The position numbers were made by a program, and so were the translations under genes. 11,334 nt of DNA from a virus (lineage: Duplodnaviria > Heunggongvirae > Uroviricota > Caudoviricetes): IMG/VR virus record IMGVR_UViG_2551306674_000009; one strand, given 5' to 3'. The notes beneath the pieces were generated by a model. It ran no database searches. It saw nothing but the letters and a program-made list of their open reading frames with translations, and was not told where the DNA came from. Shown one piece after another: positions 1,531-11,334 of the stretch; positions within the stretch are counted from its first letter, which is position 1, and each line of letters begins with the position of its first letter.

Positions 1531-1735
1531 GGGTCCTTCCTGGAATTATGGCCCGTTACGGGGCGGCGACCTCGCGGATTTTATCTGTTTATGAAAATTT
1601 TCTGGCAAAAGTCAGATCCGTTCTTCTTCTCTGTAACAGATTGTTTAACAATGAAAACATTAAAAAAAGAAAGGATCTGACACGAGGCATTTTAGCCAGA
1701 AAATGCCATTATCAGATCCTTTCTCATTTTTGTTC
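1531..1735 (+). other. Lambda-type cos site (cosQ-like, cosN 1561-1572, cosB with three R-like elements)
   Basis: Exact lambda cohesive-end 12-mer GGGCGGCGACCT at 1561-1572, followed by cgcggattttatctgtttatgaaaatttt (compare lambda CGCGGGTTTTCGCTATTTATGAAAATTTT); R-like elements at 1614-1626 (+), 1667-1686 (inverted) and 1714-1725 (+), core cAGATCC(g/t)TTCT. Confidence 0.75.
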
Positions 1736-1751
1736 AATAATTGCGCTGCGG

Positions 1752-2294
1752 TTACTCACGTTTCTTCTGTAGCAACTTTTCCGGTACGTTTCCGGTTGTT
1801 TCGGCCAGGTAATCAGCCAGTATCTGCGGAAGGTTGTCGGCAACTCTGGCACTGGCATTACAGGCTTTAACCACTTCCCTTTTAAGCCCATCCAGCATGG
1901 CGGGGGTAATCTGTGGGAAGCTCCTTTGCATCGTAAGCGGTAGGCTGTCCATGATTGAAGAAATCTGACTCGCCAGTTTTGAAAGCGCGTACATGCAAAA
2001 CTCTGTATCAATTACGTCACCGCGATCGCGCTCGTTTTTAAGTTCCTGCGCCTCCGCCTGGGCGGTCAGTAATCTGATCCTGACTCGTAAGAGTTCATCA
2101 TCATCAATCTCGCCTTTGTCGTTTGTAACCTGGTTAATTACATTGCTTACCCGATTGTCTATCACGCTGGCAACATCGTAAAAAGCCTCGCGTCCTTTAC
2201 GTTCAACGGGAGTCACTCCCCACTTGTCGAACGCTGTCGCACTTACACGGCAGCTTTTCGCCATGTTTTTTTTGTTCATCAGGTGCGATTTCAT
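1752..2294 (-). CDS. terS: Terminase small subunit, lambda Nu1-like
   Basis: C-terminal two thirds align closely with lambda Nu1 (LTAQAEAQELKNERDRGDVIDTEFCMYALSKLASQISSIMDSLPLTMQRSFP vs LTRAQADAQELKNARDSAEVVETAFCTFVLSRIAGEIASILDGLPLSVQRRFP); N-terminal DNA-binding region diverged. Start set at the second ATG (MKSHL) because it has a GGGGA SD; the ORF track begins 12 nt upstream at 2306. Confidence 0.85.
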   Translation of the reverse strand: MKSHLMNKKNMAKSCRVSATAFDKWGVTPVERKGREAFYDVASVIDNRVSNVINQVTNDKGEIDDDELLRVRIRLLTAQAEAQELKNERDRGDVIDTEFCMYALSKLASQISSIMDSLPLTMQRSFPQITPAMLDGLKREVVKACNASARVADNLPQILADYLAETTGNVPEKLLQKKRE

Positions 2295-2423
2295 CAATAT
2301 CCCCACTTAAGTAATGTTTCAGGTTGGTGTATTGGTTTTATCTTTCCCTTTTTATTCATAGAGATAGAGCGAACAACAAAACCACCACCAGCACCCGAAA
2401 AAGGCTCATAAATAGTGAAAACG

Positions 2424-2470
2424 CGCGAGGTCGCCGCCCCGTAACGGGTCCATATGCCGGAAAGGACCCG
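2424..2470 (-). other. Second cosN-containing repeat (cosQ-like + cosN + start of cosB), inverted relative to 1531-1577
   Basis: Reverse complement of GGGCGGCGACCT at 2428-2439; on the minus strand reads cgggtcctttccggcatatggacccgttacg|GGGCGGCGACCT|CGCGCGTTTTCACTATTTATGA, closely matching the remembered lambda right-end/left-end junction. No R-like elements between it and terS. Confidence 0.7.
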
Positions 2471-2494
2471 TAAAAAAAGCCGGATTTCTCCGGC
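2471..2494 (-). terminator. Rho-independent terminator after the head operon
   Basis: Minus strand: gccggagaaatccggc followed by TTTTTTT, directly after the stop of the 137-aa gene. Confidence 0.7.
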
Positions 2495-2499
2495 CTGTC

Positions 2500-2913
2500 T
2501 CAGATGGTTTTCAGTATGCGATCGATGTCGCCGTCATCGCCCGGGTTTCTGCCATCGTATGCCATGCCAGCTGATACGGCTTGCGGGCTGTGCATGTCCA
2601 TAAAGTTTTCAAAGGCTGCGGTAAGCTCCGGCGCAACCCTCGGACGTTCCTGCTCTATGGTCATGCTAAGGATGCTTTTAGCCGTACCAACATCGATACA
2701 AGGCACGTTTGCCATTGCACGTAACAGCGGCTGATAGTCGCCAGATTCATCAAGCGCCATAATCGCATCAGCGCGCGGCTTGTCCTGCTCTTCCAGTTTG
2801 TTAAGTTGATATATGGCCTCGTAGGTTGATAACCCTCTGTCAGCCATTGCCCGCGCTTCGGCTTTAAATTTACTCGCCAGCGGTAGCGTCATGATGCTTT
2901 CATTCGTTGCCAT
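2500..2913 (-). CDS. Hypothetical protein (137 aa), last gene of the head operon
   Basis: ORF with AGGGGG SD; sits after the gpD-like gene and before a terminator. No confident family assignment. Confidence 0.55.
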   Translation of the reverse strand: MATNESIMTLPLASKFKAEARAMADRGLSTYEAIYQLNKLEEQDKPRADAIMALDESGDYQPLLRAMANVPCIDVGTAKSILSMTIEQERPRVAPELTAAFENFMDMHSPQAVSAGMAYDGRNPGDDGDIDRILKTI

Positions 2914-2925
2914 CGTTCCCCCTGC

Positions 2926-3261
2926 TTATCGCGCCAGCGGCTGAACGGATACGCCAGAACCAGCAAAGGCGGCGCATTTTTTCGCGTCAGTGTCGGCGCT
3001 TTCAGGCCAGTTTACGGCGGCGATATTAAATATCCCCGTCTTGTAACACTGTGCTGATTTCTGCGTCGACGTGTCCACGGGGTACGAGGTCAGATAAACA
3101 GCCTTGCCAGATTCCTGACCATCCCACGCCTTAAACTCGCCATTGTCCGCCAGCATCAGCGGGGTAAATTCCTGAATAACGCCAGCATCAGCGGCAAAAT
3201 GTACCAGCGTCGTGGATACCTGCTGGCTGCCTGCAAATAACTCAATGTATGGAGTGTCCAT
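2926..3261 (-). CDS. Head decoration protein, lambda gpD-like
   Basis: 111 aa; aligns with lambda gpD (TPLMLADNGEFKAWDG vs TPLMLDTSSRKLVAWDG; KKCAAFAGSGVSV vs KRTAFAGTAISIV); GGGGG SD. Confidence 0.85.
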   Translation of the reverse strand: MDTPYIELFAGSQQVSTTLVHFAADAGVIQEFTPLMLADNGEFKAWDGQESGKAVYLTSYPVDTSTQKSAQCYKTGIFNIAAVNWPESADTDAKKCAAFAGSGVSVQPLAR

Positions 3262-3272
3262 AGAATCCCCCG

Positions 3273-4328
3273 TTAAGCAATTTTGACAGTAACAAATTTG
3301 CGAATATCTGCCGGAACCGGCTGCGGTGCGCTGTGCGTCTGCACGTACTCAATCGCCGGATCGCCGTCCTCAATCCAGTTTTTCGGGTAGTACATGTTTT
3401 GCGTTGCCTTCGTTCTTACTGCGTCCTGATCCATAATCGCACCATAGGCCACCAGCCCTTTATTGTTGGTGTTGCCCAGGACCAGCAAATCAGGTTCAAG
3501 GAAATATTTTTCTGTGCCGTCGCTGTCGGCGTATTTGCCGGAATAGACGATAAGGGCAATATCGCCCAGATAGCCTTTAAAGCTCACCACTTCGCCCAGG
3601 TTTTTACAGGCCAGTTCGGCGGCGGATTCTGAACCACGGGAAAGATCGTACAGCTCACGGAATTTTTTAAAGCTGCGTAACGTGCGCCATACCTCAGCGC
3701 CCATAATCATGACGTTTGCGGGGCAACCAGCCTGATCAGCATAAAGCTCGATGTCATAGATTGGATCGTGCATCTCTTTATCCTGCTCGGACCATTTTTT
3801 ACCCTTGGCCTGCTCTATGATGCAGTTTTCCGGTATTTTCCAGTCTATTTCATAGCGTTCTATGCCTTCGCCCTCAATAATGTTTTTTCCGGTCGTTATC
3901 GCATTCACCGCCAGCCATTCCACGCGCGCTTTAATGGCGTTTACCTGGCGGCGCATGTTGCCAGTAATCAGGCGCATACGTCGGTAGGTAGGGTCGTTAA
4001 GCTGTGCCGGATCTTCTCCAGCCATGCGCATGATGGTTTTTGTTGGATCGATTTCGTGCTTTGGCTTCATGTAGCCAGGTTTAATCGTGCTGGTTTCGTA
4101 TCCTTTATCGCGCTGTACCTGGCTGCCAACCATAGGCGAACAAAACGCCGACATGGTGACTTCTTCAATGTCCAGGGTATCCAGCATGATGTTTTGGGTG
4201 CTGAATGTCGCCACGTTCGGGAAAAACAGCGTGATAAACAGCGGACTGAATTTAAATTCCGCAATATCCCCGCGATTCAGGTACGCAAAAAGCTGGTTAG
4301 TGTTAAGTGCCGTTGCTTTGCCTGCCAT
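3273..4328 (-). CDS. Major capsid protein, lambda gpE-like
   Basis: 351 aa; conserved blocks versus lambda gpE (FKFSPLF, PGYMKPKHEIDP, DPTYRRMRLI, YPKNWIEDGDPAIEY...SAP). Confidence 0.9.
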   Translation of the reverse strand: MAGKATALNTNQLFAYLNRGDIAEFKFSPLFITLFFPNVATFSTQNIMLDTLDIEEVTMSAFCSPMVGSQVQRDKGYETSTIKPGYMKPKHEIDPTKTIMRMAGEDPAQLNDPTYRRMRLITGNMRRQVNAIKARVEWLAVNAITTGKNIIEGEGIERYEIDWKIPENCIIEQAKGKKWSEQDKEMHDPIYDIELYADQAGCPANVMIMGAEVWRTLRSFKKFRELYDLSRGSESAAELACKNLGEVVSFKGYLGDIALIVYSGKYADSDGTEKYFLEPDLLVLGNTNNKGLVAYGAIMDQDAVRTKATQNMYYPKNWIEDGDPAIEYVQTHSAPQPVPADIRKFVTVKIA

Positions 4329-4534
4329 TATTCACCCCCATAATTTTTATGCATCCCAAGCGCCGCAAGTAAATAAGAGCGCACAAGTGAACCTATCGAC
4401 GGCTCCGGCGTCATCAGCGGATCCAGTCCAGCCGCTACGCCAGCCTCATAGTTTTTTTTGTGGCGCTGCTTGAGCACCTCCACGATTTCGGGGCTTATGT
4501 ACACCGAAACACCGCCTTTTTTCTCTTCTGCCAT
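4328..4534 (-). CDS. Small protein (68 aa), first gene of the head operon
   Basis: Stop overlaps the capsid start (TAATG); AGAGGA SD; beta-strand/helix pattern (VSVYISPEIVEVLKQ) could be RHH-like. Function unknown. Confidence 0.5.
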   Translation of the reverse strand: MAEEKKGGVSVYISPEIVEVLKQRHKKNYEAGVAAGLDPLMTPEPSIGSLVRSYLLAALGMHKNYGGE

Positions 4535-4567
4535 AGTCAGAAATTCCTCTTTGACTTAAAAAATCAC

Positions 4568-4618
4568 AACTGGATGTTCATCCAGTTATGATTATAATCA
4601 TGATTGCATTTTGCGCAA
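4568..4618 (-). promoter_or_regulatory. Head-operon promoter with SOS-box-like operator
   Basis: Minus strand -35 TTGCGC (4613-4618), 16-bp spacer, -10 TATAAT (4591-4596); palindrome aACTGGATGAACATCCAGTt (4568-4587) just downstream of the -10 has the CTG-N10-CAG LexA-box geometry. Confidence 0.45.
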
Positions 4619-4696
4619 TAAAATTGAGTTGTGTTGCAAATTATGAAATGGTTTACAGCAACAGTAGTCACCATGCTGTTAACCTCGTAAGCAAAA

Positions 4697-4735
4697 GCCC
4701 GATAAGCTTCCTCCTGTACTTATCGGGCTTTTTTT
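4697..4735 (+). terminator. Rho-independent terminator (plus strand; weak on minus)
   Basis: gcccgataag-N12-cttatcgggc followed by TTTTTTT on the plus strand. Confidence 0.6.
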
Positions 4736-4741
4736 GGGCGC

Positions 4742-4763
4742 AAAAAAGCCGGATTGCTCCGGC
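4742..4763 (-). terminator. Rho-independent terminator after the 74-aa gene
   Basis: Minus strand: gccggagcaatccggc followed by TTTTTT; same sequence family as the terminators at 2471-2494 and 5105-5128. Confidence 0.7.
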
Positions 4764-4783
4764 TATGTGTGCTGTGTGCTGGC

Positions 4784-5008
4784 TCAGTCTCTGATCTCTT
4801 TCAGAAATTCTATCAATGCATCTATCTGTTCAGGATTTACCGCCAGCATTTCACCGGATAGAGCACATCTCACAAAACCATGCTGATCCTTTTCAATCAG
4901 TGCGCCCGTCTCCAGGAATGCGCGGTAATCATTGATGCTCATCGTCTCCATGTTGTCAGCATGGTATTTATCACGCTGTTTTAATATCTCATCAAATTTC
5001 ATCGGCAT
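4784..5008 (-). CDS. Hypothetical protein (74 aa), stand-alone moron-like gene
   Basis: AGGAAA SD; terminator upstream (5105-5128) and downstream (4742-4763), so apparently its own transcription unit between the replication and head modules. Confidence 0.55.
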   Translation of the reverse strand: MPMKFDEILKQRDKYHADNMETMSINDYRAFLETGALIEKDQHGFVRCALSGEMLAVNPEQIDALIEFLKEIRD

Positions 5009-5104
5009 TGTTTTTTTCCTCTGTTGTGTCTGTTTGTTTCAGATAGTAACTATGCCTGACCGTGACGAAAACCCGGTAATGCGCCATACCGTTTCAACTG
5101 GTGC

Positions 5105-5128
5105 AATAAAAGCCGGATTTCTCCGGCT
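5105..5128 (-). terminator. Rho-independent terminator ending the replication/regulatory operon
   Basis: Minus strand: agccggagaaatccggct followed by TTTTATT, directly after the PerC-like gene stop. Confidence 0.65.
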
Positions 5129-5134
5129 GTTTGA

Positions 5135-5407
5135 TTAGCTGTCCTGGTAATTGCGCCATATTTCATCACCAGCACCATCTATACCCATTTCGGCATAAGT
5201 GCGATCGACTGCCTTTTTCAGGTCTCCGAAATTATCCGGCGGCTCCGGTGCCCTCTGTGCCTTCCTTGAACATTCCAGCCGTCGCATCGTGATGTGATGC
5301 CGTTCCTTGTCTGTCTCCACCAGCTGCATGACTTCACCCCATCGCGCCGCCGCCCTCCGGTAAAAGCCTTTCGCCTCCAGTTCCTCCGCTATGCGGTCAT
5401 GTACCAT
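5135..5407 (-). CDS. PerC-family transcriptional regulator-like protein
   Basis: Motif AEELEAKGFYRRAAARWGEVM resembles the PerC/Pch signature as I recall it; start placed at the internal ATG (MVHDRI) with a GAGGGGG SD rather than the longer ORF-track start at 5527. Confidence 0.55.
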   Translation of the reverse strand: MVHDRIAEELEAKGFYRRAAARWGEVMQLVETDKERHHITMRRLECSRKAQRAPEPPDNFGDLKKAVDRTYAEMGIDGAGDEIWRNYQDS

Positions 5408-5417
5408 CGTCACCCCC

Positions 5418-5713
5418 TCAGAACGAAATATCATCACCGTAAGGGTCATCGCCTCCCGCTGGTGGCTGATTACCCTGTGTGCCTGTGGTTTTGCGTCTGT
5501 TCCCGCCAGGACGGGCAGCACGGGCACTGATTACACTGTCTGCGATAACCTGCCAGCCCTGCCGCGTTTCGCCGTTCTGGCCTGTCCGTCCTGTGCCTGG
5601 CTGCATGGCAAAGATACCGCCATACGCGCCAGCGTCATCGGTGTGCCCTTGCTGGTCTGTTTTACCTGCGGGTCGTCCACCAGCCGCCCGTAAGCGGCTA
5701 TCTGTGCTGTCAT
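5418..5713 (-). pseudogene. SSB-like remnant spanning two reading frames
   Basis: Frame from 5713: MTAQIAAYGRLVDDPQVKQTSKGTPMTLARMAVSL (SSB N-terminus-like); a second frame ending at 5418 is Gly/Gln-rich and ends DDPYGDDISF (SSB acidic tail-like). Start overlaps the upstream stop (ATGA) and the second frame ends 10 nt before the next gene. About 98 codons in total, too short for a full OB fold. Confidence 0.35.
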
Positions 5714-5961
5714 GATTCCACCTCTCCGGTTTTAACGTTGATGGTTGTTACCTGTTCCGCTTCGGCAATCTCCCGTTCTGTCAGCGTGGCAAAGTTTGCC
5801 GCCGCCGTGGTCATGAATGCGCTTATCAGGTCGGGATGTTCCTTCGCGTATCCTTCCCGCGTGTGGCGGTCTATCGTTCTGATTGCCACCTTTAAGGTGT
5901 GCTCAGTCATGTCTAACGCTTTATATTTTGGCTCTGTTCTGTCTCTGCGTTTTTGGGTCAT
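5710..5961 (-). CDS. Hypothetical protein (~83 aa)
   Basis: First ATG with GAGAGG SD at 5961 (ORF-track start at 5991 is GTG and lies inside the iterons); stop overlaps the SSB-like start. Confidence 0.45.
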   Translation of the reverse strand: MTQKRRDRTEPKYKALDMTEHTLKVAIRTIDRHTREGYAKEHPDLISAFMTTAAANFATLTEREIAEAEQVTTINVKTGEVES

Positions 5962-5969
5962 TTCTCGCA

Positions 5970-6165
5970 ACCTCTCACTTTTTCGCCTCACTTTTTCAAG
6001 CGTCTCACTTCGTCGCAGTTGGGATTTTCGGTTTTTCTATGTGTGTGTTTCATAAGTATTTTTTTACCCCTCACTTTTGAGGATGTATACAGGTCGAAAA
6101 GTGAGGGAGAGCGGGCTAATTTTGGCCCTCTTTCTATCCCCCTCGCTTTTGCTCCTCACTTTTAT
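5970..6165. repeat. Putative replication origin: CTCACTTTT iterons flanking an AT-rich stretch
   Basis: Copies at 5974-5982, 5987-5995, 6004-6010 (degenerate), 6070-6078, 6097-6105 (inverted), 6142-6150 (degenerate), 6155-6163; AT-rich 6020-6068; immediately 3' of the rep gene. Confidence 0.65.
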
Positions 6166-7562
6166 AGCGGCGCTACATCATCCCCATCGATACGAATAAC
6201 CCCATCTTTTTCCAGCTTGTACAGCCAGCGCCGGAAGTTTTTCATTTCATACCCCAGCTTTTTCATGTCATCACGTAACAGCGGGATCGTGCACTTGTCG
6301 CCGTTCTGTGTGCGTGAACGGATGCACCCCCATAGCGCGGTATGGTTTTCCGTCTTGTTCCCTGCCTCCTCGATGCGCTCCAGTTCAACAGGAGGGCGCG
6401 GATCATCCACCACCACCAGCGACGTGATTAATTCACCGTCAGCGTCGGTAAAAAGCTCCACCACGCGTAAGTCATATGCGGCTTCTTTGAGTTCCTCCGC
6501 GTCCTTCATTTTGGTGCATGAGATAACCAGCGCTTCGCTTCCTGCGTCCTCCCTGCGTATCCGGTATTCAGCATCCAGCGAAGCACGAAATGCACTGGAA
6601 CCGCGCGCGCCTTTCGTCTCATCCTTGCCGGAATGGTGAACCACCAGCACCGTGGCCCCTGTGCGTCGTTTCAGTTCGTCACAACCACGGATAAACGCCC
6701 CCATATCACGGGAATCATTTTCATCATTCCCACCAAAGCAACGCGCCAGCGTATCCAGAATAATCATGCGTACAGGTTTACCCGTTTCCCGCTCCACCTG
6801 ACGGGCAGCGATAACCATTTCATCAACATCAAGCGGGGCAGCCGGAAAGATGGGGCGGTTTACCAGATACAGATTTTTCACCTGCTCATCGTGCACAACC
6901 TCCCAGGCTTTTACACGACGCGGAACACCTATACCGCCTTCACCAACCACATAGAGAACCGCACCATGTGCAACCCTGCGGCCTCCCCACTGGCGACCAG
7001 TGGCAACATGGCACGCCCACGATCCGGCAAGGAATGATTTATAGGACCCGCTAGCCCCGTATATGCTGCATAGCGATACCGCCGGAATAATCCCCTTAAC
7101 CACGTAATCCAGTTGCGTGTCGTATCCGGTAGATCCAACGCTCATCGGTAGCGTGGTTTTTCGCTGGTGGTTTTTTTCTTCCGCCGGCTCTTTCCCGCGC
7201 ACCCGTTCCAGGTATTCGCGCCAGTTCTCCCGCATATGGCTGTGCATCCCTTCGGGGTAATAATTCGCATCAGTTACACCCGCCGCCGCCAGCTTGTGCG
7301 CAATGGCATTAATATTTGATGGCCTGATGTGGCCTGCCTTGTACAGCCGGACACAATAGCGCCCCTCGTCGATGATTCTCAGGTCTGCCAGTTCATCCAG
7401 TTGATCATCAGCCAGCACAACGGGAGGCACATTATCGCCAGCCAGTCGCCCGTCCTGTTCCTGCCACTGTTTCGCATGTGCCCAGGCATCACTACCCGCA
7501 AAAATAATGACTTCGGTCATCTTGTCGTAAGGCTGTTTTTTTAAGTTCGGTGCGCTTTTCAT
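6162..7562 (-). CDS. Replication initiator/helicase, RepA-like (AAA_25-type RecA-fold ATPase)
   Basis: 466 aa; Walker A GASGSYKS, Walker B-like MIILDTLARCF, VLVVHHSGKD; C-terminal winged-helix-like region; ATGA overlap with the upstream ORF. Confidence 0.8.
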   Translation of the reverse strand: MKSAPNLKKQPYDKMTEVIIFAGSDAWAHAKQWQEQDGRLAGDNVPPVVLADDQLDELADLRIIDEGRYCVRLYKAGHIRPSNINAIAHKLAAAGVTDANYYPEGMHSHMRENWREYLERVRGKEPAEEKNHQRKTTLPMSVGSTGYDTQLDYVVKGIIPAVSLCSIYGASGSYKSFLAGSWACHVATGRQWGGRRVAHGAVLYVVGEGGIGVPRRVKAWEVVHDEQVKNLYLVNRPIFPAAPLDVDEMVIAARQVERETGKPVRMIILDTLARCFGGNDENDSRDMGAFIRGCDELKRRTGATVLVVHHSGKDETKGARGSSAFRASLDAEYRIRREDAGSEALVISCTKMKDAEELKEAAYDLRVVELFTDADGELITSLVVVDDPRPPVELERIEEAGNKTENHTALWGCIRSRTQNGDKCTIPLLRDDMKKLGYEMKNFRRWLYKLEKDGVIRIDGDDVAPL

Positions 7563-7858
7563 TTCTTGCCCCTGAATCCGTTAATCATGGTTTTCAGCTT
7601 CTGGATGTTTGCCCGTGCCCTGGCGTTGCTGGTGGGCACGTTATGCGGCGCGGTCTGTACCAGAGAAAAATCACGCCGGAACTGATAAACAGGCATCACG
7701 CAATCATATTCGTAACCTTCACGGCGGTAAGTTACGCACCGTCCCGCCACGCCCTTAATCATTACCGTGCCGCCGTACTGGTCGCGGTAAATATCACCGC
7801 GCGTAAATTTAGGGTTAGTGTTGCCACTGGCAGTTAAGCCAGAATATTTAAGTTTCAT
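7559..7858 (-). CDS. Hypothetical protein (99 aa)
   Basis: ORF with GGAGA SD, translationally coupled to rep. Confidence 0.5.
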   Translation of the reverse strand: MKLKYSGLTASGNTNPKFTRGDIYRDQYGGTVMIKGVAGRCVTYRREGYEYDCVMPVYQFRRDFSLVQTAPHNVPTSNARARANIQKLKTMINGFRGKK

Positions 7859-9491: not shown

Positions 9492-9686
9492 TTAATTGAC
9501 GCGTTCGCGGTTTTTGACCCAGGCGACAACCTCAGACTTAACCCAGCCAACCGAACGACCGCCAAGACTGATACGGGAGGGAAAGCGGCCTTGTTTTTCC
9601 ATCTCGTAACGAGTTGTGCGGCAAACGCCTGTTAGCTCTCTGCATTCTTTTTCGCGGATTACACGATCTTCATTTATTTCGCGCAT
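9492..9686 (-). CDS. alpA: AlpA-family phage transcriptional regulator / excisionase-like protein
   Basis: 64 aa with AlpA-type motif (CRTTRYEMEKQGRFPSRISLGGRSVGWVKSEVVAWV); adjacent to and co-oriented with the integrase. Confidence 0.75.
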   Translation of the reverse strand: MREINEDRVIREKECRELTGVCRTTRYEMEKQGRFPSRISLGGRSVGWVKSEVVAWVKNRERVN

Positions 9687-10095: not shown

Positions 10096-11334
10096 TCAAG
10101 AATTTTGAGAGTAAATTCGCGGGGTCATAACAACGATTTTTTCATCATTGTTCTGGAGAAGCTCGAGACGCTCAACCCATAGATTAAGAGCGTCACGTTT
10201 TGCATCGAGATAACGGGAGTGATTATAGACTCGTTGCATTCCTGGCAACTGGTGCGCGGTTAGCTGCTCCACTACATGAGGATCCACGCCTAAATCGTTC
10301 AGCATCGTTGTAAACGTGTGCCGGATGTCGTGCAACGTCCAGGGGGCTTGATTAATACGTCTGTGTGCCGTTCTTCCGTACTCTGATACGGATGATTGCC
10401 CTTTCAGTTCTCCGAGCAATAATCCCGTGTGCCTGTTCTGCTCCACCAGCTTCGTTACGAACGGCAAGATCGCTTCCGGTATTGGCCTGAATATTGCTAC
10501 CTTCGTTTTGCTGTGTTCTTTCGGCACGGTCCAGAGCATTTCTTTAAAATCCCATTCCTGGAGCTCAGAGCGTCTTAGCTCAGTGGTACGACATCCGAAG
10601 ACAATCAGGAGGCGAATCAGGGCGCTGTAGTACGGTGGGTAAATTTTTTCATCCAGGGCGCGGAGTAATTCCCCAAGCTCCTTGTTTGTTAGTACGCGCT
10701 CGCTTATTTCTGCTTTTTTCCCAACATCACCTACAACCATATCATCTAGAACGTTGGTAATTGCGTAGCGTCGTTTGCGGCAGTACTTAAGCGCCTGCTT
10801 GCATACCTGTAACAAAAATCCTGCTGATACCGGATTACGCTTAGCAAGCTGATCAAAACAGGTCAGCCAGTGGCGTAGCTCGCATTTTTCCAGCGGCATA
10901 GCACCAATCTGGCTGATTATGTGTGTATTGATCCGGCTCTTCAGAGATTCGTAGTCTGTGCGCTTTTCCTTCGCGTACGATTCAAGCCAGTAAGTGAGCG
11001 CTTCCTTAACCGTAACAGGTGATAACGCTTCCTGTACGGTGTGATTAAGCTCATGGCGTGGATTTTTCCCCTCAGCAAGCCAGGCGCGACACTGCGCCGC
11101 TTTTTCCCTGGCTGCTTTCAGGCTCAAATCAGGATAATTTCCCAGCCTCAGACGTTCAGGGGATACCTTCCTGCCTGTTCCGGCCCTGTAAGTGAAATAC
11201 CAGGTTAACAGGCCATTGGTTGAATGCCTTACGCTAAGGTTGCCACCATCATTAAAAAAGGTGTTTTTTGTGGTTGGTGATCCGCTTAATTTTCGTAAAA
11301 GAGTGTCGCTAAGTCTATGAATTGCCCTGCTCAT
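10096..11334 (-). CDS. int: Tyrosine integrase, P4-type
   Basis: 412 aa; N-terminal arm-binding-like region, C-terminal catalytic residues (HDIRHTF ... VYNHSRY). Start codon is at the last bases of the window, so the true 5' end could lie beyond the edge. Confidence 0.85.
   Translation of the reverse strand: MSRAIHRLSDTLLRKLSGSPTTKNTFFNDGGNLSVRHSTNGLLTWYFTYRAGTGRKVSPERLRLGNYPDLSLKAAREKAAQCRAWLAEGKNPRHELNHTVQEALSPVTVKEALTYWLESYAKEKRTDYESLKSRINTHIISQIGAMPLEKCELRHWLTCFDQLAKRNPVSAGFLLQVCKQALKYCRKRRYAITNVLDDMVVGDVGKKAEISERVLTNKELGELLRALDEKIYPPYYSALIRLLIVFGCRTTELRRSELQEWDFKEMLWTVPKEHSKTKVAIFRPIPEAILPFVTKLVEQNRHTGLLLGELKGQSSVSEYGRTAHRRINQAPWTLHDIRHTFTTMLNDLGVDPHVVEQLTAHQLPGMQRVYNHSRYLDAKRDALNLWVERLELLQNNDEKIVVMTPRIYSQNS

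Follow-up and report, generated by a model that had tools for sequence, protein, structure and literature searches.

The interference genes of Staphylococcus aureus pathogenicity islands (SaPIs), among them ppi, ptiA/B/M and cpmAB, lie between the replication origin (ori) and the packaging operon, and their products bind helper-phage proteins. Phage morons, a concept of Hendrix and Juhala, have their own promoter by definition and usually show no positional orthology across genera. According to the lambdoid module theory of Susskind and Botstein, short conserved boundary or linker sequences are present at module junctions, and Clark et al. in 2001 reportedly described conserved boundary sequences between lambdoid phage modules in work on HK620. 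Here we analyze a gene for a 74-amino acid protein, p74, and the hairpins that flank it in an 11,334-nt stretch of viral DNA (IMG/VR record IMGVR_UViG_2551306674_000009; hereafter, the window). Judging from its gene content, the window is a Gram-negative phage-inducible chromosomal island (PICI) of Escherichia coli, of the EcCICFT073, O-island 51 (OI-51) or CP-933C type. The p74 unit is a terminator-bounded accessory cassette in this PICI, which refines the map of a known element and overturns nothing. We consider it reasonably probable that its hairpins are copies of a terminator reused across the island family, that p74 is a real gene of a small family, and that the cassette is exchanged by recombination at the hairpin.

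In PICIs, an accessory region that carries the Tai immune genes adjoins the pri gene in the middle of the element (PMC11364771). The p74 slot is similar in that it lies between the replication and packaging modules and varies in content between related islands, but p74 is unrelated to Tai (~204 aa) or to the antagonist AtiEcA (76 aa), and the variable genes found in other genera are located just 3′ of p74. When compared with the SaPI layout outlined previously (PMC6092414), p74 is also a small, satellite-specific gene situated after the ori and before the packaging genes. However, it has no sequence or fold similarity to the SaPI interference genes, its hosts belong to another phylum, and the helper phages of EcCIEDL933, a mobilisable island with p74, are not blocked by it (10.1101/2022.09.08.507074). 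The defence hotspots of P2 and P4 (PMC9122126) are likewise defined variable satellite loci between conserved genes, but they hold many unrelated multi-gene systems, whereas the p74 slot has three states in the sampled E. coli islands (empty, p74 or a ProQ-like gene).

Like a moron, p74 stands between conserved genes, is absent from some collinear relatives, deviates in GC content (43% versus 50-55%) and possesses its own terminator. Its leader yields a 7/12 promoter candidate and no stronger one, and, unlike most morons, p74 keeps its position as an orthologue across genera. The hairpins resemble lambdoid boundary sequences in that both are short conserved junction sequences at mosaic breakpoints that could support homologous exchange. 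In this case, however, a hairpin of only ~20-30 nt that looks like a working terminator takes the place of the linker, and it belongs to a satellite instead of a phage.

A low-GC cassette bounded by hairpin repeats

In E. coli, the p74 unit is an almost invariant, low-GC cassette of 364 bp composed of a hairpin (T1), a 101-nt leader, p74 and a second hairpin (T2). The GC content of the cassette is 43.4% and that of the p74 gene 42.7%, as compared with 54.9% for the PerC gene upstream and 51.2% for the 68-aa gene downstream. T1 is the upstream boundary of the cassette, while T2 is both the downstream boundary and the junction with the capsid module.

Megablast searches with positions 4328-5527 against 5426 complete E. 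coli genomes returned three classes of partial match, with edges at query positions 407/416 and 781, corresponding to window positions 4734/4743 and 5108. In direct comparisons with islands that lack p74, homology stops at window positions 5100-5108 and restarts at 4764-4776, and in islands with an HK97-type capsid module it ends at 4743. A multiple alignment revealed 97-100% identity over the whole cassette among islands with unrelated downstream DNA, and homology is lost just past the T-run of T2. The most divergent carriers (L140 and L141) have a different, truncated PerC gene upstream, and their homology starts exactly at the first hairpin. Islands without p74 keep one hairpin whose loop is of either “parental” type, as crossovers at differing points inside the repeat would produce.

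An earlier note on this DNA, made from the sequence alone, had proposed that the hairpins mark insertion points or module boundaries. The positions of these breakpoints bear this out, as does the gain or loss of the cassette between the same flanks, and the reading of the p74 unit as an insulated, exchangeable cassette is supported by these comparisons. With the same 20-30 nt hairpin on both sides, short-homology recombination inside the hairpin could gain or lose the cassette, and it could also join the cassette to different replication and capsid modules. Whereas the breakpoints are visible in the alignments, we infer the recombination mechanism at the hairpins.

The hairpins and their distribution

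A terminator scan recovered the three minus-strand hairpins with a common stem that had been reported earlier (T1, T2 and T3; Table 1). The coordinates given for them at that time included the T-runs and were correct to 1-2 nt. The shared stem held up, but the loop, described as three or four nucleotides, is always 4 nt long (GAAA or GCAA). The hairpin consensus is AGCCGGA-GNAA-TCCGGCT plus a T-run, and the search pattern AGCCGGAGNAATCCGGCT, with at most two mismatches, matches only T1, T2 and T3 in the window, all on the minus strand, versus no matches in 200 dinucleotide-preserving shuffles. The stems are 7-8 bp long with five G-C pairs and a GNAA loop, and their predicted RNA folding energies range from -12.5 to -14.6 kcal/mol (z = -2.9 to -3.7). 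The U-run comprises T6-T7 after T2 and T3; after T1 it is interrupted in the window (TTTATT) and reads TTTTTTT in nearly all relatives. T1, T2 and T3 resemble one another over ~20-30 nt in total, made up of the hairpin itself, its T-run and a small number of further bases. T3 is located 4 nt past the p137 stop codon and ~40 nt ahead of the cos site. The whole window contains 29 terminator-like sites versus 13.1 +/- 2.9 in shuffles.

An exact-match scan of IMG/VR for the hairpin yielded 120 loci, which were classified along with five loci from E. coli genomes. In ~75 PICI-type loci, the hairpin closes the replication module after whichever gene is last (p93, SSB, PerC, p74 or a ProQ/FinO-like gene), and a G-variant hairpin closes the capsid operon after p137 in 34 loci. 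Loops among the classified loci are GAAA, GCAA, GTAA and GGAA, and in more than 100 related loci the hairpin occurs shortly past a stop codon on the coding strand. These findings agree with the earlier proposal that the hairpins mark operon boundaries: They stand at the end of the replication operon after its last gene and at the end of the capsid operon just before cos. In Klebsiella, a p74 homologue is followed by AGGCCGGG-GAAA-CCCGGTTT and T7, which is the same stem with an A-U pair replaced by G-C, and this variant points to selection on hairpin structure. Because it is a stable GC-rich stem-loop with a 3′ U-run positioned past stop codons on the coding strand, the hairpin is predicted to be the island family's standard Rho-independent (intrinsic) terminator at operon ends.

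A second hairpin (4693-4736) stands in tandem with T2 and is part of the lambda-E-type capsid module; its stems are conserved, and its loop varies between islands. With an A-run and a T-run on either side, it could terminate transcription in both directions. The tandem arrangement with T2 would therefore leave the capsid operon strongly insulated against upstream transcription.

The p74 gene and its predicted protein

The 74-aa open reading frame (ORF) noticed earlier is present between T1 and T2 and has an ATG start codon. It encodes an acidic protein of 8.6 kDa (isoelectric point 4.76) that falls in PHROG 1957, an entry with no assigned function. The protein of E. coli 042 (RefSeq WP_001132079.1) is identical to it, and ECs_1589 from O157:H7 Sakai shares ~99% identity with it. 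Synonymous changes dominate among the E. coli alleles, and a ratio of nonsynonymous to synonymous polymorphism (pN/pS) of 0.12-0.18 indicates purifying selection. Residues Y28, D41, H43, A56, E60, Q61, D63, L65 and L69 are nearly invariant in the family.

Structure prediction and a remote-homology search, both suggested in the earlier note, produced a confident model and matched no known fold, Pfam family or defence family. AlphaFold2 with 25 homologues gave a predicted local distance difference test score (pLDDT) of 89 and a predicted template modelling score (pTM) of 0.70, whereas a single-sequence model was poor (pLDDT 53). In order, the model comprises helices 5-14, 17-22 and 25-34, three short strands that form a three-stranded sheet, and helix 59-73. 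No family in Pfam, NCBIfam or PADLOC reaches its cut-off for p74 or its homologues, a sequence search of the PDB with p74 returned nothing below E = 0.3, and neither profile searches nor the model revealed a DNA-binding fold or motif. Searching 50,697 phage genomes with p74 by tblastn gave no match. When all Rfam families were applied to the whole window at E <= 1, two weak chance matches were obtained elsewhere and nothing in 4535-5134. The 74-aa ORF appears to be a genuine protein-coding gene because of its low pN/pS, because ~40 homologues keep its length and motifs, and because its model reaches a pLDDT of 89.

Presence and absence in E. coli

The cassette occurs at 592 places in 539 of the 5426 complete E. 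coli genomes, or ~10% of genomes. By comparison, the commoner island gene p93 occurs at 1971 places in 1479 of these genomes. From these two numbers of places, p74 is therefore present in roughly 30% of related E. coli islands. Conservation as a core gene in all related islands, which had been named beforehand as the outcome that would count against a cargo role, is not what this proportion indicates. In an IMG/VR sample, 15 of the 47 islands in which both modules are visible carry the cassette, eight with an E-type and seven with an HK97-type capsid. Overall, the cassette is found joined to either of two capsid modules and to three or more replicases, those in the IMG/VR sample being RepA or primase replicases.

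A comparison of the locus across related islands, likewise proposed earlier, revealed a variable slot that is empty or filled by p74 or a ProQ/FinO-like gene. In CFT073, PerC is followed by a single hairpin and the capsid operon, and in FORC_029 by a single hairpin and an HK97 capsid; p74 is absent from both. The Sp7 island of Sakai and the capsid-forming PICI EcCIEDL933 are one and the same; this island has PchE, a hairpin, ECs_1589 (p74), a hairpin and an HK97 capsid, and the island of E. coli 042 also has p74 in the slot. In strain 135, a 194-aa ProQ/FinO-like gene occupies the slot. A 194-aa gene of this kind, whose product resembles RNA chaperones of the ProQ/FinO family, was seen in some islands (L004, 2938-3522, minus strand; L081; and L126), either in the slot or between SSB and PerC. 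On the basis of these comparisons, p74 appears to be an accessory gene in E. coli. Because EcCICFT073 lacks p74 and is mobilisable in experiments (PMC6092414), p74 is dispensable for the basic satellite cycle.

Homologues in other genera

Close homologues of p74 (at least 91% identity) are found in E. coli only. An exhaustive search with HMMER, together with a profile search, uncovered ~40 further proteins of 66-119 aa with 28-48% identity, among which the members named by source come from Citrobacter, Klebsiella, Ewingella and Arsenophonus. A species-level genome scan, whose query was a narrower family alignment since the full alignment is too divergent, adds Shigella, Phytobacter, Pectobacterium, Kluyvera, Enterobacter, Serratia, Leclercia, Erwinia and Rahnella. 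Thus, homologues of p74 with 33-47% identity are present in at least 10 other genera of Enterobacterales, and 13 of the 15 distinct contexts agree in where the gene is located.

In those 13 contexts, the p74 homologue lies between the replicase and ori on one side and the capsid module on the other, 200-400 nt past the replicase (~750 nt in one lineage), and in most contexts it starts directly behind the ori iterons. The adjacent replicases are of the AAA_25 helicase, DUF927, D5_N or other primase types, and the capsid module that follows consists of the HK97 set of capsid-forming PICIs in some contexts and of a protease-capsid fusion in others. A GC-rich hairpin is usually present 5-25 nt past the stop codon of the homologue, and no upstream terminator is found in these other-genus contexts. 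Variable genes, when present, are placed after the p74 homologue, for example a 170-aa gene on the reverse strand. These comparisons suggest that p74 represents a small family whose members occur in satellites and in further small mobile elements of Enterobacterales, and that in most lineages it closes the replication module as its last gene. It looks like an old, optional gene ending that module and not like a recent arrival or hypervariable cargo.

The 170-aa gene converges on the p74 homologue ahead of the capsid module in Citrobacter, Kluyvera, Enterobacter and Ewingella-like islands (L006, 8294-8806, minus strand; L135, 4427-4939, minus strand; L145; and L146), and it has homologues in only three phage records. 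This gene is a candidate for true hotspot cargo. We also considered whether p74 and the convergent gene constitute a pair like atiEcA and taiEcA of phi80. This idea was rejected at the level of sequence: p74 is not similar to AtiEcA, the 170-aa protein is not similar to TaiEcA, and the latter protein has no phi80 homologue.

The leader and transcription of p74

The earlier note had regarded p74 as probably its own transcription unit, and this claim found no support. The leader has no sigma-70 promoter at the threshold of 9/12, and in other genera the homologues lack a terminator on the upstream side and resemble the final gene of a replication operon. Their arrangement favours co-transcription of p74 with the replication genes. 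In E. coli, p74 might be expressed by read-through of a leaky T1, from a weak promoter in a conserved block of the leader, or by both routes. The broken U-run after T1 in the window would favour read-through into p74.

The leader includes a second, weak terminator-like hairpin at 5091-5074 (CGGTA..TACCG, then GGTTTTCG). It also has a conserved 52-nt block ahead of the Shine-Dalgarno sequence, a CA-rich 5′ untranslated region, and AGAGGA 8 nt before the ATG. In the allele that diverges most, with a cassette identity of 90% overall, the 52-nt block shows a single change, which is suggestive and not significant. RefSeq contains a 42-aa “hypothetical protein” (5050-5178, minus strand) that spans T1 and the p74 leader, and HK97-type islands have a 37-aa “trigger factor” in the same leader (L140, 2782-2895). 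Both entries look like spurious ORF calls over the terminator and leader.

Weighing the alternatives

Several observations weigh against the explanation we favour, in which a reused family terminator also serves as the site of cassette exchange. About 45 of the 120 hairpin matches in IMG/VR are in unrelated phage contigs, and therefore the hairpin sequence is not exclusive to the island family. The search pattern fixed the stem sequence, so the E. coli set is blind to covariation. Breakpoints at gene boundaries could also result from selection filtering random illegitimate recombination, with the hairpin serving as no substrate. Two contexts (L136 and L137) break the positional rule, one being a 16-kb Arsenophonus element in which the p74 homologue follows TerL and the other a metagenomic integrative element in which it lies beside the integrase. 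No sigma-70-like promoter of at least 9/12 is present in the leader (5009-5110), where the best candidate, TTTTCG-17-TACTAT inside the 52-nt block, is a 7/12 match only. Finally, a role for p74 in protein binding, which we consider most likely, is deduced only from its size, its charge and the lack of a DNA-binding fold.

If the hairpin were primarily not a terminator but a dedicated DNA element that drives cassette capture, such as a recombination site of the attC type or of the repetitive extragenic palindromic or miniature inverted-repeat transposable element (REP/MITE) type, or a protein-binding site, then breakpoints matching the hairpin to within a few nucleotides, direct repeats on both sides of the cassette, and loops of either parental type in p74-less islands, as expected for crossovers inside the repeat, would all be accounted for. 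Yet every copy is found soon past a stop codon (6-27 nt, with 4 nt for T3) on the coding strand and precedes a T-run, which is classic terminator anatomy, and loop variation is restricted to GNAA. Moreover, no recombinase or transposase is associated with the hairpin, similarity is confined to ~20-30 nt without terminal inverted repeats or target duplications, and the same hairpin is present in unrelated phage contigs. We judge this alternative to be highly improbable. Even harder to sustain is the view that the 74-aa ORF arose by chance and that the conserved cassette is a non-coding RNA or regulatory leader, to which we assign almost no probability. The leader is as conserved as the ORF, and start codons in databases disagree (variants of 74, 89, 100 and 105 aa), as this view would have it. 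Nevertheless, the dominance of synonymous changes, the confident model, a good Shine-Dalgarno sequence and the absence of any Rfam match all speak for a gene, as do homologues in other genera that maintain the frame, the length, an MPI/MPM N-terminus and the motifs at only 28-48% identity.

As for its function, p74 most probably acts by binding another protein, whether of the helper phage, of the satellite's replication or packaging machinery, or of the host. The earlier note had pointed to defence or anti-defence cargo, such as satellites often have at positions of this kind. As hotspot cargo, p74 would protect the host against competing phages or counter host or phage immunity, and we consider this quite unlikely. 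Published work places the accessory region of PICIs, with its Tai immune genes in those of Pectobacterium, in the slot between the replication and packaging modules (PMC11364771), and this slot is variable in E. coli. Likewise, the cassette is low in GC and polymorphic for presence, small acidic proteins are typical inhibitors, and several genera have reverse-strand cargo genes directly 3′ of the p74 homologue. However, because those variable genes come after p74, it looks like a flank of the hotspot and not its content. PADLOC gave no matches, there is no similarity to AtiEcA (hhalign probability 0.3%) or TaiEcA, and no homologues were found among the 50,697 phage genomes. The reading is weakened further by positional orthology, since diverged orthologues keep their place in several types of island and in no fewer than 10 genera. 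Cargo at hotspots, in contrast, usually differs in kind from one neighbouring island to the next. Overall, defence or anti-defence cargo is a somewhat disfavoured reading.

Of similarly low probability is a role as a satellite life-cycle factor that links replication to packaging by modulating the replicase or ori, protecting replicating DNA ends, or controlling the capsid operon. This role would suit the location of p74 directly after the ori iterons and directly before the capsid genes in 13 of the 15 other-genus contexts, whatever the type of replicase or capsid, and it would suit the fact that E. coli p74 travels with DNA-metabolism genes such as SSB. The divergence of p74 (~45% identity) is also comparable to that of neighbouring core genes (61% for RepA and 62-72% for the major capsid protein). 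Nonetheless, ~70% of related E. coli islands lack p74, including the mobilisable EcCICFT073 (PMC6092414), and no DNA-binding fold or motif was detected. A role tied to the capsid is unlikely, given that p74 occurs together with three capsid modules unrelated to one another. A bolder proposal, which we regard as rather unlikely, holds that the GNAA-loop terminator doubles as a portable recombination linker at which classical and capsid-forming PICIs would exchange cassettes and whole modules through short stretches of homology, perhaps via helper-phage recombinases, and that p74 is an effector specific to satellites, with a fold not seen before, which binds a protein of the helper phage or the host as a new interference or counter-defence factor.

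Gene map of the island

The window was assigned to the PICIs because its int, AlpA-like, RgdR, RepA, PerC, lambda E/D capsid and Nu1-like Rpp genes, its iterons and its cos ends fit published descriptions (PMC6092414, PMC6739421, PMC3378721). It contains int, alpA, a replicase with an adjoining iteron ori, and packaging-redirection genes, and it contains no lysis or tail genes, as is characteristic of PICIs. Across positions 4400-5600, the window shares 96% identity with an E. coli 042 island that is integrated in tqsA. A search for related loci among genome contigs with the capsid protein returned nothing. The iterons probably mark the replication ori directly after the replicase gene, where PICI descriptions lead one to expect it. 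RgdR (ECs1581 of O-island 51) is a published regulator of the enterocyte effacement locus (LEE), or type III secretion, and of motility, with an RGD motif at residues 20-22 (PMC3378721). The possibility that p74 itself is RgdR was rejected, because RgdR is the 99-aa DUF4222 gene listed in Table 1.

Table 1. Positions of genes, hairpins and other features in the window
Feature	Position	Strand	Details
Tyrosine integrase	10096-11334	-	
AlpA-like helix-turn-helix gene	9492-9686	-	Several small genes next, leftwards
RgdR, 99-aa DUF4222 gene	7559-7858	-	TRGD at residues 19-22
RepA/AAA_25 helicase	6162-7562	-	
ori iterons, CCTCACTTTT	5971-6163	both	At least 5 copies between RepA helicase gene and p93
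p93, 93-aa gene	5710-5991	-	
PerC-family gene (PchE-like)	5135-5407	-	PF06069, E = 1e-42; ended by T1
Hairpin T1, AGCCGGA-GAAA-TCCGGCT	5111-5128	-	AGCCGGAGAAATCCGGCT + tail TTTATTGCAC (5110-5101); 6 nt past PerC stop codon
p74 leader, 101 nt	5009-5110	-	Between T1 and p74 ATG
p74, 74-aa ORF	4784-5008	-	ATG start
Hairpin T2, AGCCGGA-GCAA-TCCGGCT	4747-4764	-	AGCCGGAGCAATCCGGCT + tail TTTTTTGCGC; 19 nt past p74 stop codon
Second hairpin, 15-bp stem, A7-GCCCGATAAG...CTTATCGGGC-T4	4693-4736	either	-22.1 kcal/mol, z = -3.8
68-aa gene, PHROG 3255	4328-4534	-	First gene of lambda-like capsid operon; downstream neighbour of cassette
Lambda-E-type major capsid protein	3273-4328	-	
Lambda-D-type decoration protein	2926-3261	-	
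p137, 137-aa gene	2500-2913	-	Last of capsid operon (68 aa, E, D, 137 aa)
Hairpin T3, GGCCGGA-GAAA-TCCGGCT	2478-2495	-	Scan entry 2496..2477: AGGCCGGAGAAATCCGGCTT + TTTTTACGGG; tail TTTTTTTACGGG
Nu1-like 184-aa protein, Rpp	1752-2306	-	

The PerC gene is the immediate upstream neighbour of p74 in nearly all E. coli-type islands examined. A functional link between the two was set aside, since homologues of p74 in other genera have no PerC neighbour. Upstream of PerC, the gene for single-stranded DNA-binding protein (SSB; region 5408-5713) is broken in the window by the loss of ~121 bp relative to E. coli 042 and other islands. The deletion junction (5580-5587) is an 8-bp overlap of two alignment segments. 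What is left of SSB is a 60-aa N-terminal part (5531-5713). The PerC ORF, at 130 aa, seems to be an artificially lengthened one.

Directly 5′ of the ribosome-binding site of the first capsid-operon gene is a palindrome or hairpin with a 14-bp stem (4562-4593, minus strand; AATCATAACTGGATG-AACA-TCCAGTTGTGATT, then T6) that has a folding energy of -19.8 kcal/mol (z = -5.9). It shares bases with a perfect -10 hexamer (TATAAT, 4596-4591), and TTGCGC is present at 4618-4613. Related islands display double compensatory changes (TA..TA to GG..CC) that preserve its pairing or symmetry, and it has no match in phage genomes. The palindrome may be either an operator or an attenuator of the capsid operon. 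Mimicry of a helper late promoter by the region upstream of the capsid genes was also considered, and blastn of 4535-4745 against phage genomes gave no match.

Two exact copies of the lambda cohesive-end sequence GGGCGGCGACCT lie in inverted orientation on either side of rpp, at 1561-1572 (plus strand) and 2428-2439 (minus strand), each inside a lambda-cos-like stretch of ~75 nt (1530-1605 and 2394-2470); shuffles gave 0 matches. Island homology breakpoints around rpp coincide with these cos-like repeats (~2394-2397 and ~1601-1605) and not with hairpin T3. Near the left end of the window, where there are only short overlapping ORFs, two near-identical small hairpins occur on the plus strand at 866-881 and 999-1014 (AGCGCAATTTTGCGCT and AGCTCAATTTTGAGCT, each then TTGCTTTAAG) with a spacing of 133 nt. 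The region around them also has a weak manA-like match in Rfam (E = 0.11).

Implications for satellite biology

Among enterobacteria, PICIs are widespread and drive both the transfer of genes and the regulation of virulence, and in enterohaemorrhagic E. coli islands of the present type carry RgdR and PerC/PchE, which regulate LEE. If the interpretation favoured above is true, the terminator hairpin at module junctions would provide a concrete route by which satellites shuffle their modules, including the replication genes, an optional cassette and two capsid modules. Likewise, p74 would represent a small protein family that matches no known fold or function, that is found almost only in satellites and related small mobile elements, and whose position, after ori and before the capsid genes, is constant in many genera.

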